This document shows, one piece after another, positions 5,992-21,583 of a stretch of DNA of 64,000 nt. This stretch comes from Escherichia coli (lineage in GTDB: Bacteria > Pseudomonadota > Gammaproteobacteria > Enterobacterales > Enterobacteriaceae): assembly GCF_003334385.1 (NCBI RefSeq), contig NZ_QOWN01000016.1. One strand, given 5' to 3'. The notes below the pieces were generated by a model, which saw only the letters and a program-made list of their open reading frames with translations, had not been told where the DNA came from and made no database searches. Position numbers and translations under genes: made by a program. Within the stretch, counting starts at the first letter, position 1; every line of letters begins with the position of its first letter.

Positions 5992-6630
5992 ATGGCTGTC
6001 GCTGCCAACAAACGTTCGGTAATGACGCTGTTTTCCGGTCCTACTGACATCTATAGCCATCAGGTCCGCATTGTGCTGGCTGAGAAAGGTGTAAGTTTCG
6101 AGATCGAACACGTGGAAAAGGACAATCCGCCTCAGGATCTGATTGACCTCAACCCGAATCAGAGCGTTCCGACCCTGGTGGATCGTGAGCTGACCCTGTG
6201 GGAATCTCGCATCATTATGGAATATCTGGATGAGCGTTTCCCGCATCCGCCACTGATGCCTGTTTACCCGGTAGCTCGCGGTGAAAGCCGTCTGTACATG
6301 CATCGCATCGAAAAAGACTGGTACACGCTGATGAACACCATCATCAACGGTTCAGCTTCTGAAGCAGATGCCGCACGTAAGCAACTGCGCGAAGAACTGC
6401 TGGCGATTGCGCCGGTCTTCGGTCAGAAGCCGTACTTCCTGAGCGATGAGTTCAGCCTGGTCGATTGCTATCTTGCTCCGCTGCTGTGGCGTCTGCCGCA
6501 ACTGGGCATCGAGTTCAGCGGCCCGGGTGCGAAAGAGCTGAAAGGCTATATGACCCGCGTCTTTGAGCGTGACTCTTTCCTTGCTTCTTTAACTGAAGCA
6601 GAACGTGAAATGCGTCTGGGCCGGAGTTAA
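5992..6630 (+). CDS. sspA: stringent starvation protein A (GST-like, RNAP-associated)
   Basis: 212-aa ORF; recognised sequence; operon with sspB. Confidence 0.95.
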   Translation: MAVAANKRSVMTLFSGPTDIYSHQVRIVLAEKGVSFEIEHVEKDNPPQDLIDLNPNQSVPTLVDRELTLWESRIIMEYLDERFPHPPLMPVYPVARGESRLYMHRIEKDWYTLMNTIINGSASEADAARKQLREELLAIAPVFGQKPYFLSDEFSLVDCYLAPLLWRLPQLGIEFSGPGAKELKGYMTRVFERDSFLASLTEAEREMRLGRS

Positions 6631-14416: not shown

Positions 14417-14444
14417 GATTCTGCAGACACTGTCTGCAGAATTC
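14417..14444. repeat. 28-bp near-perfect palindrome (solo copy) between convergent yhcH and yhcG
   Basis: GATTCTGCAGACACTGTCTGCAGAATTC; 19 bp after yhcH stop and 13 bp before yhcG stop codon; same family as the copies inside yhcG and after gltD. Confidence 0.8.
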
Positions 14445-14457
14445 GAAACCGCTGAAA

Positions 14458-15585
14458 TTAACGGCGTCTATAGCCTTCCTCTAGCACCGCCTGTGTTCGA
14501 ACGAGTTCATCTGCGAGTCGTTTCTCATCAGGTAGTTGCATCTTATATTCGCTTGCCAGAACGGTGTTAGGCAAACCTGCCAGAGCATAATGCGCTTCTC
14601 CGGCTCCTTTCTCTGCACAGAGAACCAGACCGATGGGCGGATTTTCATCCGGTAGCGTCCAGTGCTCTTTGGCGTAGTTGAGATACATATTCATCTGTCC
14701 GGCATCGCTATAGCTGAATTTGCCCACTTTTAGATCGACGATTAGCAGGCAGCGTAAACGGCGGTGGAAAAACAGCAGATCGACACGAAACCAGTTGTCA
14801 TCAATGCGTAACCTTCGCTGCCGACCAACAAAGGCAAAATCATCCCCAAGTTCCAGCATGAAATCCATCAGGTGGTTGATCAGCGCCTCCTCAAAATCGG
14901 ATTCTGAATATTCATCTTTCAATTCCAGAAATTCGAGCACAAAGGGATCGCGTATCGCCTGTTGCGGAAGAATATGCGTCTCGGCAGGAGCGTGTTGTTG
15001 CAGCATGGCTGATTTGTCATGTGACAGTAGTGTCCGCTCATAAAACTGGGTCGCAATTTGCCGCTCTAGCTGGCGAACAGACCAGCCACAGCGGAGCGTC
15101 TCTTTTTCATAAAAGCTGCGGGCGTCAGCGTTTTTAACGGAAAGTAAACGGACGTAGGTGGACCTGGGCAAGGGGAAAGATTTGGCAGACAGCGTCTGCC
15201 AAATCTTTGCCGATGGGAATTCTGCAGACGGTGTCTGCGGAATTCCCAATGGTGTTAATTCGCCAGACATTGTCTGGCGAATTTCAACATGTTGAAAAAA
15301 GAGGTAAAAAAGCCTCATTTGGCGTAAGTTTTTTGCAGAGAACCCACGCTTATACCTTAGACATAAATCCTTTGATAGTCGCTTGATTAGCTGCGCACCA
15401 TACGCAGCCCTGGCCTCGCCACCTTGTTCAAATTCGACAATTCGTCGGCCAATTTCCTGGTACGTCGCGGTCATTAACGCGTTAACGCTACGTACCGTTT
15501 CCGTCCGGGCGCTATCGACCAGATGAATAATACCGTCGTGGATTTGCTGGTAGCCTGCTGTGGTTCCTTCTGAGAGCGATTCCAT
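14458..15585 (-). CDS. yhcG: DUF1016-family protein with PD-(D/E)xK nuclease-like C-terminal domain
   Basis: 375-aa ORF; C-terminal ...RVDLLFF...LLIVDLKVGK resembles a D...(D/E)xK nuclease core; contains in-frame palindromic repeats. Confidence 0.85.
   Translation of the reverse strand: MESLSEGTTAGYQQIHDGIIHLVDSARTETVRSVNALMTATYQEIGRRIVEFEQGGEARAAYGAQLIKRLSKDLCLRYKRGFSAKNLRQMRLFYLFFQHVEIRQTMSGELTPLGIPQTPSAEFPSAKIWQTLSAKSFPLPRSTYVRLLSVKNADARSFYEKETLRCGWSVRQLERQIATQFYERTLLSHDKSAMLQQHAPAETHILPQQAIRDPFVLEFLELKDEYSESDFEEALINHLMDFMLELGDDFAFVGRQRRLRIDDNWFRVDLLFFHRRLRCLLIVDLKVGKFSYSDAGQMNMYLNYAKEHWTLPDENPPIGLVLCAEKGAGEAHYALAGLPNTVLASEYKMQLPDEKRLADELVRTQAVLEEGYRRR
15180..15283. repeat. three tandem 39-bp units, each with a ~25-33-bp palindrome, in frame within yhcG
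   Basis: ATTTGGCAGACAGCGTCTGCCAAAT (15180-15204), GGGAATTCTGCAGACGGTGTCTGCGGAATTCCC (15215-15247), AATTCGCCAGACATTGTCTGGCGAATT (15257-15283); encode IWQTLSAK / IPQTPSAE / IRQTMSGE on the minus strand. Confidence 0.85.
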
Positions 15586-15769
15586 TATCTGTCCCTTTAT
15601 ATGGAGCTAAGTTGAATAATGGAATGAGCTATACTCTGGGGGGTGAGCACTGAACAATTAAGAACAGCGTATTACATTTACTTTCCCCAAGATATGCGAA
15701 GAGCTTTCCTGAAACATTAACCGATCGTATAAAACGAATGCCTGATAGTACTCCTGTCCGGCATTGTTA

Positions 15770-16486
15770 TCACAAGTAGACTACGCTTATCACAGCTTTC
15801 CCATCAAGTTCGATTTTTTCTGAACCGCCTAAATCATTCGCGATAGATGCGCTCACCTGAAGCGGTATAATGGCGTTCGTTACAGGAGTTGGGGTTGTTT
15901 CACCTGGTTTTACAAAGGTGTAATAATAGCTTTGATCGACTGCAAGCGGATAAGCGGTGAGCGTTTGCCATGCTCTTTTTTGCCCTGTTATGACGGCATC
16001 TGCACCTGCTATTGATACAGCTAACGTCTGGCTACCATTGCTGGCACTAATGTTGTTGCTATCAATTAACACGGCATAACTACCGATATTTTTATTATCT
16101 TTTGTTTTCCCTAAGCCGAATAAGCGCGTTGTCTGGCTAATATAACCTCCGCCATTTAAGGTATATTTTACACCACTCTGACCCCCACTATCTTTTCCGG
16201 TGGTCATACTATCCATTCGTGTATCACGAGCGGTAATCGCAATGCTGGTAGCGGATTCGCAAGTTATAGTCATATTAATATTACGTGTTCCAATCTGTGT
16301 GTAGTGCTGCGTTGAAAGTCTATTGACTGAATGACTACCGAAGTTAACAACTCCGCCGTTGCTTAGTATTGGAGTACAAGCTGCAGCTTCCAGAGTCACC
16401 TTAACGTCAATTGATACTCTATCAGCGGCTTGCGCTGACATGGCAAAAAAGGCACTTCCGGCAATCAGTAATTTTACATTGTTCAT
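15770..16486 (-). CDS. yhcF: fimbrial-like protein (DUF1120 family), secreted
   Basis: 238-aa ORF with signal peptide MNNVKLLIAGSAFFAMSAQA; paralogous to GltF; last gene of the chaperone-usher cluster. Confidence 0.8.
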   Translation of the reverse strand: MNNVKLLIAGSAFFAMSAQAADRVSIDVKVTLEAAACTPILSNGGVVNFGSHSVNRLSTQHYTQIGTRNINMTITCESATSIAITARDTRMDSMTTGKDSGGQSGVKYTLNGGGYISQTTRLFGLGKTKDNKNIGSYAVLIDSNNISASNGSQTLAVSIAGADAVITGQKRAWQTLTAYPLAVDQSYYYTFVKPGETTPTPVTNAIIPLQVSASIANDLGGSEKIELDGKAVISVVYL

Positions 16487-17034
16487 TTTGCCTCCACCAG
16501 GACCGTCAGATTGCCTGTAATATCTGTCATGTCGGTTAGTTCCCCTTCATCCTTAAAAGCTGGAGCCATTGTCAGTGTGAGGCTAACGCTTTTACCGCTA
16601 TCAATTACCACTTCTTGACCATTTTGCATAAACACCAGCCAATTATTGGGGGAAGTACTAATTGATGCTGTTCCTGTGCTGCCCGGATTGTCATTTTTGC
16701 CACTGGCTAACGCCAGGTCGAGATTGTTACTACCTGAAAATGCATCGCTGGCGATCAGATTTAATGAACCATTCGGGCCAAATCCAAATCCGTTGTTGGA
16801 AATATTAGCGGTATTCAACTGAACACGAATATGAGCGTCCTGATCGCATTGCATTACCAGCGTGATTGTTCTGTCTGCTAATTGTGTTGTTTTACCCCGG
16901 TCAACTTGGCGCATGGCAGCACTTCGTTTGCCATAGTCGATATTTTGTATGCTACTGGAGATATTACACTCTGCCTGAGCGGCCATGGCGAAGTTCAGCA
17001 GCAGGCATCCTGTTATTATCCGTTTCATTGGCAC
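16483..17034 (-). CDS. yhcE: fimbrial-like secreted protein, apparently intact
   Basis: 183-aa ORF with signal peptide (..LLLNFAMAAQA); overlaps yhcD stop and yhcF start; no IS sequence present. Confidence 0.75.
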   Translation of the reverse strand: MPMKRIITGCLLLNFAMAAQAECNISSSIQNIDYGKRSAAMRQVDRGKTTQLADRTITLVMQCDQDAHIRVQLNTANISNNGFGFGPNGSLNLIASDAFSGSNNLDLALASGKNDNPGSTGTASISTSPNNWLVFMQNGQEVVIDSGKSVSLTLTMAPAFKDEGELTDMTDITGNLTVLVEAK

Positions 17035-21555: not shown

Positions 21556-21583
21556 GATTCGCCAGACACAGTCTGGCGAATTC
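21556..21583. repeat. 28-bp near-perfect palindrome (solo copy) immediately 3' of gltD
   Basis: GATTCGCCAGACACAGTCTGGCGAATTC; ends 13 bp before the gltD stop codon at 21597 (i.e. just downstream on the gltD strand). Confidence 0.8.

Follow-up and report, generated by a model that had tools for sequence, protein, structure and literature searches.

We analysed a 64,000-nucleotide (nt) stretch of Escherichia coli DNA (RefSeq assembly GCF_003334385.1, contig NZ_QOWN01000016.1; hereafter the window) that carries yhcG, a gene of the DUF1016/YhcG family, and found inside this gene a short self-complementary element that occupies a fixed position in nearly every sampled member of the family, across Bacteria, Archaea and viral contigs. 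The constraint on this palindrome acts on the nucleic acid and not on the protein, it is likely to be a selected cis element, and the best overall explanation that we can offer, to which we give slightly less than an even chance, is that it is a cis-acting site read by YhcG’s own N-terminal domain. The original prediction for this locus, made from the DNA letters alone, mentioned the palindromes in a side remark; they are the notable feature of the gene, and a family-wide one that reaches beyond E. coli. The gene and the fold of its product were already known, and the embedded cis element is the new part as far as the searchable literature, which omits most subscription journals, can tell: searches for a palindrome together with DUF1016, yhcG, COG4804 or PDDEXK returned no description of it there.

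Five matches to the pattern CAGACNNNGTCTG lie in the window, against 0.02–0.08 expected, and none of 100 shuffles reached five. The in-frame palindromic repeats that the prediction had seen in yhcG are indeed there, in three copies (Table 1) that follow each other at 39 nt (13 codons), with 12–14 nt between copies; the arms of the third reach 12 nt each with one further flanking base pair (15179–15205). Where the arms differ among the window’s copies, the change is nearly always compensated (CGC/GCG, TGG/CCA, CTG/CAG). Two further palindromes are extragenic, and the flank of the one that follows the yhcG stop is similar to the in-gene sequence, FQR..ILQT.S.E; one yhcG allele reads through into this palindrome, which then encodes ILQTLSGES. 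A Filimonas DUF1016 gene (locus L088) carries identical palindromes within the gene (nt 382–406) and 14 nt after its stop (6091–6115), and the likeness of this arrangement to that of E. coli points to a recurrent pair of in-gene and post-stop palindromes. A blastn search of 5426 E. coli genomes with one 31-nt copy, which detects close variants only, returned 1–2 sites per genome, all of them at the yhcG locus.

Across the family, the element is 25–27 nt long, commonly reads ATT-NNN-CAGAC-N3-GTCTG-N'N'N'-AAT and stands just 5' of the codons for LSWSH or LPWGH. Salmonella (with one mismatch) and Pseudocitrobacter have it at the same position of the gene, a homologue on a Burkholderia plasmid has 14-nt arms, a Hymenobacter homologue with 39% protein identity has perfect 13-nt arms, and a metagenomic DUF1016 gene holds three copies. 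The core itself is altered to GAGAC...GTCTC, with compensation, on Pseudomonas putida plasmid pTTS12, and is of a GTGAC type in Citrobacter and Methylobacter plasmid homologues (33–37% identity). Scanning one genome per species gave 80 loci, all of a further branch, from Chlorobi, Planctomycetes, Deltaproteobacteria, Bacteroidota, Firmicutes, Verrucomicrobia, Acidobacteria, Gemmatimonadota and Methanomicrobiales. At these loci, perfect arms 11 nt or longer have a density of 0.452 per kilobase (kb) in the genes and of 0.041 per kb in 588 kb of flanks, and the perfect palindromes centre at a median of 29 codons upstream of LSWSH. Centres with 11 of 11 complementary positions number 45 in the linker zone compared with 1 elsewhere in the genes; 83 of 90 sampled genes carry one or more in-frame palindromes in which 8 or more of 11 positions are complementary, and one reading frame is common to 79 of 88 strong sites. 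Some relatives have tandem copies, with periods of 30–60 nt, and these extra copies do no more than lengthen the linker.

Deep branches of the family (27–37% protein identity, many of the LPWGH type), drawn from Arthrobacter, Rhodococcus, Curtobacterium, Legionella, Moraxella, Paraburkholderia, Chryseobacterium, Aeromonas and Klebsiella, have palindromes that end within 1–2 codons of L(S/P)W(S/G)H and encode differing peptides, such as VQQPVGQ, IVATLSRQ and IVTPLVTQ. By our own count, at least 10 of 12 arm positions are complementary at the expected spot in 20 of 23 loci outside the 80-locus set, for an estimated chance of roughly 0.4% per gene. Viral contigs scanned with the pattern gave 38 loci: the palindrome lies inside a DUF1016 gene in 23 and about 1.3 kb from one in 1 more, and the other 14 are orphans, 5 of them near faint DUF1016 remnants (marginal, E 4e-4 to 7e-3) and 9 without. 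Two viral scans aimed at the LPWGH branch returned 0 and 1 loci.

We then picked sites by their left arm only (ATTNNNCAGAC) and obtained 40 unique sites. In 27 of the 40, the variable triplet pairs in full with the right arm, against 1/64 by chance, and 93% of the cells in their alignment pair, a proportion that falls to 33–40% when the partner column is slid by one. The covariation score was 0.319 compared with 0.085 after shuffling, and 0 of 500 shuffles reached the observed value. Variable pairs use GC, CG, UA and AU, with G·U in 3 of 120 cells, and serine is almost always encoded by TCT at these sites despite there being six serine codons. Copies within one gene have different triplets and the same core, and each of the three in the K-12-type gene is self-complementary or nearly so (copy 2 has one mismatch). 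As the triplet differs and yet stays complementary, it is needed for pairing, unlike the ATT ends and the core, which are kept as sequence. Next to the centre, the 5' base is invariably a purine and the 3' base a pyrimidine; these two are complementary in 69% of sites, and the central base is G or C about equally (42 versus 39). In imperfect copies, we counted 36 G·T (on the sense strand), 59 A·C and 145 transversion-type mismatches; the excess of A·C over G·U (P = 0.02) is a weak bias on which we do not rely.

The constraint is placed on the nucleic acid because the triplet covaries, pairing makes next to no use of G·U and disorder is predicted for the encoded peptide in E. coli, where the repeat-encoded residues 100–131 have a predicted local distance difference test (pLDDT) score of about 40. 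We rejected a cause at the level of the peptide, given the fixed TCT codon, the covarying triplet and the different peptides of the deep branches. A control is provided by a quasi-palindrome, CATCAGGATCTGGGNCAGATGCAGATG (10 of 12 positions), at about nt 850–950 of the gene in loci L019, L035, L038, L044, L054, L074 and others, which encodes the conserved HQDLGQMQM and shows no covariation; protein conservation alone can thus yield 10/12 symmetry. Three further classes were also rejected: an intrinsic (Rho-independent) terminator, as a consensus scan flags no palindrome at the locus and no T-run follows; a dispersed repeat resembling repetitive extragenic palindromic (REP) elements or miniature inverted-repeat transposable elements (MITEs), as close variants of one copy occur only at the yhcG locus in the 5426 genomes and the position in the gene is fixed family-wide; and a CRISPR array, given the 12–14-nt spacing, the in-frame placement in an open reading frame (ORF), the single copy of most genes and the lack of cas genes nearby.

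A symmetric element of this kind could also be functionless, that is, an ancestral quasi-palindrome in a tolerant linker that template-switch mutation (quasipalindrome correction), an established mutational hotspot mechanism in E. coli, keeps symmetric, so that the covariation would be mutational and not selected. Pairing that is strictly Watson–Crick with no tolerance of G·U, mismatches of all types and a peptide whose predicted disorder leaves the DNA free to drift would all suit such an origin. A neutral element, however, would be expected to have been lost over a divergence to 27–40% protein identity that spans Bacteria and Archaea, whereas position, frame, the outer ATT/AAT and the inner AC...GT are all retained, at a 10-fold to more than 40-fold enrichment relative to the flanks and to other parts of the same genes. 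We therefore regard this origin as very improbable; if true, the family would offer a remarkable natural example of palindromes that mutation alone maintains.

A Watson–Crick stem without strand asymmetry is suggestive of DNA, as a hairpin or cruciform, more than of a typical RNA stem. An RNA hairpin in the yhcG transcript might stabilize or destabilize the message, cause ribosomes to pause midway through the N-terminal domain, between its halves, or serve as a built-in inhibitor RNA; in this last, ToxI-like variant, the hairpins would keep the nuclease inactive until host transcription stops. The element is indeed always part of the ORF’s transcribed sense strand, the pairing covaries, tandem copies recur periodically, the three K-12-type hairpins fold as RNA at -67.6 kcal/mol (z-score -11), and a nuclease with no partner needs some self-control. 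The rarity of G·U, the lack of a sense-strand wobble preference among the mismatches and the balance of G and C at the loop centre nevertheless make an RNA role unlikely, as do the missing U-tract, the DNases that predominate among fold relatives of the nuclease domain and the retention of the element in archaeal Methanomicrobiales copies. Rfam 15 has no family for it either; the sole match, to mir-266, is sub-threshold (23.6 bits against a gathering score of 80) and due to chance.

YhcG itself very probably consists of two modules, an all-helical N-terminal domain and, beyond a linker, a NucS/RecB-like PD-(D/E)xK domain that makes it a predicted nuclease. The prediction had read RVDLLFF...LLIVDLKVGK in a 375-residue ORF as a D...(D/E)xK core, and the ORF, the Pfam matches and the conservation of the motif all agree with it. 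The alpha-beta-beta-beta-alpha-beta core fold of the PD-(D/E)xK superfamily is present, and so are the expected catalytic residues, which are conserved: the complete motif comprises E228/E232, D269, D284-x-K286 and Q297...Y301, and in an alignment of 25 sequences (34–80% identity) E228 and L285 are invariant, D269, K286, Q297 and Y301 are at least 90% conserved and residue 284 is D or E. Judged by its sequence, this combination of E-D-(D/E)xK with a QxxxY helix is the signature of RecB/NucS-type nucleases. The YhcG_C match spans positions 1–155 of the 157 of the Pfam model, and DUF1016_N, all-helical in the structural model, is split by the repeat-encoded linker. The window protein is 97–100% identical to E. 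coli proteins named YhcG, DUF1016 or PDDEXK nuclease domain-containing protein, and RefSeq labels the gene yhcG in an E. coli genome identical over the stretch. The family comprises 21,241 cluster representatives (50% identity) at E <= 0.001; PHROGs includes it with no function assigned, NCBIfam has no model for it, and a sequence search of the PDB with YhcG gave chance matches only (E > 0.2).

The nuclease fold of YhcG was predicted by Kosinski et al. in 2005, who tied the protein to DUF91/NucS and archaeal Holliday-junction resolvases (PMC1189080). Deletion of yhcG is synthetically lethal with hypomorphic dnaB, dnaN and parE, and the network of the same study groups YhcG with HsdMRS, McrBC, IntF, IntS and PinE (Hu et al. 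2009, PMC2672614). Our literature search found no biochemical account of its nuclease activity. The statement in the prediction that the function is unknown thus holds for its biochemistry, but has to be set beside the fold assignment of 2005, the synthetic lethality of 2009 and the status of the family as the defence candidate PDC-S02.

Table 1 Features of the yhcG locus (positions in the window) and of palindrome-bearing fragments in related prophage-like elements (positions in loci L131, L129 and L132).
Feature	Position	Strand	Sequence	Remarks
In-gene palindrome 1	15258..15282	no strand	ATTCGCCAGACATTGTCTGGCGAAT	perfect 12-nt arms, one central base; encodes IRQTMSGE
In-gene palindrome 2	15219..15243	no strand	ATTCTGCAGACGGTGTCTGCGGAAT	one arm mismatch (C·A, coding strand); encodes IPQTPSAE
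In-gene palindrome 3	15180..15204	no strand	ATTTGGCAGACAGCGTCTGCCAAAT	11-nt arms, 3-nt centre; encodes IWQTLSAK
Extragenic palindrome	14418..14442	no strand	ATTCTGCAGACACTGTCTGCAGAAT	13 nt past yhcG stop, between convergent nanQ and yhcG
Extragenic palindrome	21557..21581	no strand	ATTCGCCAGACACAGTCTGGCGAAT	16 nt past gltD stop, edge of gltF-yhcADEF segment
yhcG coding sequence	14458..15585	minus		uninterrupted ORF, ATG start, 375 residues and stop codon
DUF1016_N (PF17761), N-terminal helical domain	15034..15531	minus		residues 19–184, Pfam E 1.3e-36
YhcG_C (PF06250), C-terminal PD-(D/E)xK nuclease domain	14506..14964	minus		residues 208–360, Pfam E 1.6e-56
D269 codon, putative metal-binding Asp, strand beta-2 (RVDLLFF)	14779..14781	minus		from sequence; nearly invariant in family alignment
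D284-L285-K286 codons, (D/E)xK motif, strand beta-3 (IVDLK, within LLIVDLKVGK)	14728..14736	minus		from sequence
Palindromes/repeats in prophage-like elements	L131 4704–4765 and 6026–6087; L129 10566–10627; L132 9563–9587

The gene moves between unrelated hosts and operons, so its own product is the only constant partner that is inherited with the palindrome, and for this reason we tentatively propose YhcG as the reader of the element, with recognition most simply due to its N-terminal domain, whose similarity to ParB and KorB is only suggestive. The protein would recognize the conserved ATT ends and the core (CAGAC or its lineage variants) of a base-paired stem, in the form of a DNA hairpin, a cruciform or a duplex palindrome. 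Such a site could control or dock the nuclease independently of any particular promoter or host factor, for example by negative feedback on its own expression. The nuclease would act on DNA, perhaps in branched or hairpin form, at replication forks or in elements that enter the cell, as the fold and the published genetic interactions suggest. The farther-reaching form of the proposal, in which the palindrome is an obligatory cis partner and the family consists of single-gene modules whose protein reads a hairpin, cruciform or operator inside its own ORF, is possible but clearly short of probable.

The genomic neighbourhoods of the family bear on a different role for the same protein, in which YhcG would work alone as a restriction-like or anti-mobile-element nuclease that recognizes or cleaves the palindrome, with the copy in its own gene being either incidental or a resident site for an enzyme that cuts only under particular conditions. 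The prediction had noted that relatives often sit beside restriction–modification (R-M) or other defence genes elsewhere, and at least 17 of the 80 loci are indeed part of type I R-M operons, where the usual gene order is hsdM, yhcG, hsdS, hsdR; other homologues stand between a methyltransferase and a helicase. The family shows enrichment near R-M systems, on plasmids, within prophages and, according to the literature, among Tn7 cargo, and it recurs on conjugative plasmids and in CRISPR neighbourhoods. Dimers of PD-(D/E)xK enzymes typically recognize palindromes, the core contains GACNNNGTC, similar to a type II restriction site, and YhcG matches the PADLOC profile PDC-S02 over residues 9–370 (E 2.8e-131) as well as a CRISPR-associated PD_DExK profile (E 7.9e-52). 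PDC-S02 is a candidate class defined by genomic association and not by function, and its setting among defence genes or mobile elements is found in other genomes and is absent at the E. coli locus. Cutting an unprotected site in its own gene would, however, be self-destructive, with five copies in the window and no methyltransferase near E. coli yhcG; a variable triplet with obligatory pairing is unlike a restriction site, and the one homologue tested against phages lay outside the protecting candidates (detailed below). We consider a restriction-like role improbable.

Rearrangements around the element suggest yet another possibility, that of a hotspot kept for module shuffling, cassette exchange or the use of site-specific recombinases. 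In E. coli, palindromes border variable segments: the arrangement nanQ-palindrome-yhcG...gltF-palindrome-gltD has a counterpart in strains without yhcG, which retain a single palindrome, in unchanged outer flanks, between nanQ and gltD (L004 3126–3152). E. coli yhcG alleles are also mosaic, and over the 60 nt that directly precede the palindromes on the 5' side, identity to the K-12 type is down to 63%; in this patch, another E. coli allele is 92% identical to Pseudocitrobacter, and the foreign patch ends at the palindromes. Among three related integrase-bearing, AT-rich prophage-like elements that we compared (L131, L129 and L132), a two-gene toxin–antitoxin cassette is flanked by 179-nt direct repeats that are palindrome-bearing DUF1016 fragments, one related element has an intact DUF1016 gene instead of the cassette and another has both; by our reading of the sequence, the cassette would encode a Panacea/DUF4065-like antitoxin and a small toxin. 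DUF1016 genes are, moreover, enriched 17-fold beside the target genes of programmed inversion (literature). These examples are only suggestive, as palindromes are inherently fragile and rearrangements at them might be incidental. At most loci the site stands alone, no partner lying within 6 kb, the 12-1-12 or 11-3-11 layout is unlike known tyrosine-recombinase core sites, and the query set used detected no integrase in the 80 genome loci; we find a recombination role quite improbable.

Overlapping integrase and PDDEXK genes, a further point for such a role, are found on large conjugative plasmids, where a tyrosine integrase gene overlaps the start of the DUF1016/PDDEXK gene by 4 nt (P. putida pTTS12, L011 4757–7119; Citrobacter IncHI1A/IncP, L014 4736–6999; Klebsiella IncFIB, L139 1239–3505). 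In pTTS12 and a Burkholderia plasmid, a gene for HU lies just upstream of this gene module, and the integrase–PDDEXK(–HU) arrangement looks like a conserved two- or three-gene module. None of nine plasmid loci has a second palindrome within 6 kb, which argues against a general two-site recombination role.

At its E. coli locus, yhcG stands outside any multi-gene system. As predicted, it is solitary and convergent with the sialic acid genes, of which nanQ (yhcH) is the last gene of nanATEK, and an identical annotated genome has no methyltransferase, helicase, toxin or cas gene within 12 kb on either side. Its neighbours over this distance are the nan genes, a fimbrial segment (yhcF, yhcE, yhcD, yhcA, gltF), gltDB and the ssp, ribosomal-protein, zap, dcuC and degQ genes. 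Because Salmonella and Pseudocitrobacter have yhcG immediately downstream of gltB-gltD, in the same orientation, it is a long-standing resident of Enterobacteriaceae beside gltD and no recent island. At least 80% of the locus is present in 3347 of 5426 complete E. coli genomes, the remainder being interrupted by insertion sequences (IS), frameshifted or deleted; some strains lack the gltF-fimbrial segment and read nanQ-yhcG-gltD, and others have nanQ beside gltD and no yhcG. Alleles vary in the number of 13-residue units, with proteins of 349, 362 and 375 residues among other lengths. The window’s locus is identical to that of pig and human isolates (NZ_CP074005, NZ_OZ547155) and is of the K-12 type, with W43Q and W141R (codons at 15457–15459 and 15163–15165). 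Positions 43 (YW.IG motif) and 141 (LSWSHY motif) are Trp in all other enterobacterial homologues of the alignment and mostly Trp or another aromatic in the wider family, which suggests that the N-terminal domain is weakened or altered in this E. coli lineage.

Upstream of yhcG (15586–15770), a simple scan gave no strong sigma-70 consensus promoter, and a divergent antisense RNA of stationary phase, G0-10703, is reported to overlap the yhcG 5' untranslated region by 128 nt (PMC7967276). Two observations concern the surroundings of the gene. The window’s yhcE is uninterrupted at 16483–17034; the K-12 MG1655 copy carries an IS5 insertion. In Pseudocitrobacter, beyond nanT, four copies of a 22-nt palindrome, CCCTCTCCCTCAAGGGAGAGGG, stand 73 nt apart (L007 8861–9101); they are unrelated to the yhcG palindrome.

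Several points weigh against the proposal that YhcG reads its own palindrome. A dimer that binds duplex DNA would not need the triplets to be complementary, an RNA hairpin should tolerate the G·U pairs that are so rare, an operator some 300 nt into an ORF is unusual, and a single site per locus, with no second one within 6 kb, is again the rule. The K-12-type copy may, judging by its two Trp substitutions and the loss of the gene from many E. coli genomes, be decaying, and when a cold-seep homologue of PDC-S02 was placed in E. coli B (preprint), it did not belong to the protecting candidates, four out of eight, in challenges with T4, T5 or T7. In E. coli itself, yhcG is ordinary, being non-essential and often lost. 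DUF1016/YhcG is among the most widespread families of uncharacterized nucleases and has been without a handle for 20 years. A fixed palindrome supplies a candidate ligand to use in binding and cleavage assays, hints at how a nuclease that stands alone could be held in check without a partner gene and offers a model for regulatory information that travels inside a coding sequence; were it an obligatory cis partner, it would be a host-independent, undescribed element in a family of more than 21,000 representatives (at 50% identity).

Among nucleases, NucS/EndoMS (DUF91) and the RecB/Cas4-type enzymes are the fold relatives from which YhcG differs by its all-helical N-terminal domain; no mismatch-repair context is evident for it, and its activity is predicted only. 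FokI, N.BspD6I and BpuSI are likewise modular, with a separate recognition domain, but the corresponding module of YhcG has no sequence similarity to theirs. I-TevI provides a precedent for a nuclease that represses its own gene; it is a GIY-YIG enzyme whose operator overlaps the promoter and does not lie within the ORF. The similarity of the YhcG N-terminal domain to the helix–turn–helix domains of ParB, Spo0J, KorB and SopB is weak, YhcG lacks the N-terminal CTPase domain of ParB and a partition partner, and its binding is putative. Type III toxin–antitoxin systems (ToxIN) resemble yhcG in linking short, structured tandem repeats to a nuclease gene at a single locus, but ToxI consists of tandem 36-nt repeats that precede the toxin ORF behind a terminator and its partner is an endoRNase, whereas the yhcG element is in-frame inside the ORF, mostly single-copy and associated with a DNase-like fold. 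REP sequences and bacterial interspersed mosaic elements (BIMEs), which are linked to REP-associated tyrosine transposases (RAYTs), and the Rickettsia palindromic elements are, like the yhcG element, short palindromes with covarying stems, and the Rickettsia elements share with it an in-frame position within coding sequences. All of these are dispersed in many copies among unrelated genes, whereas the yhcG element is always found at the same position of one family.

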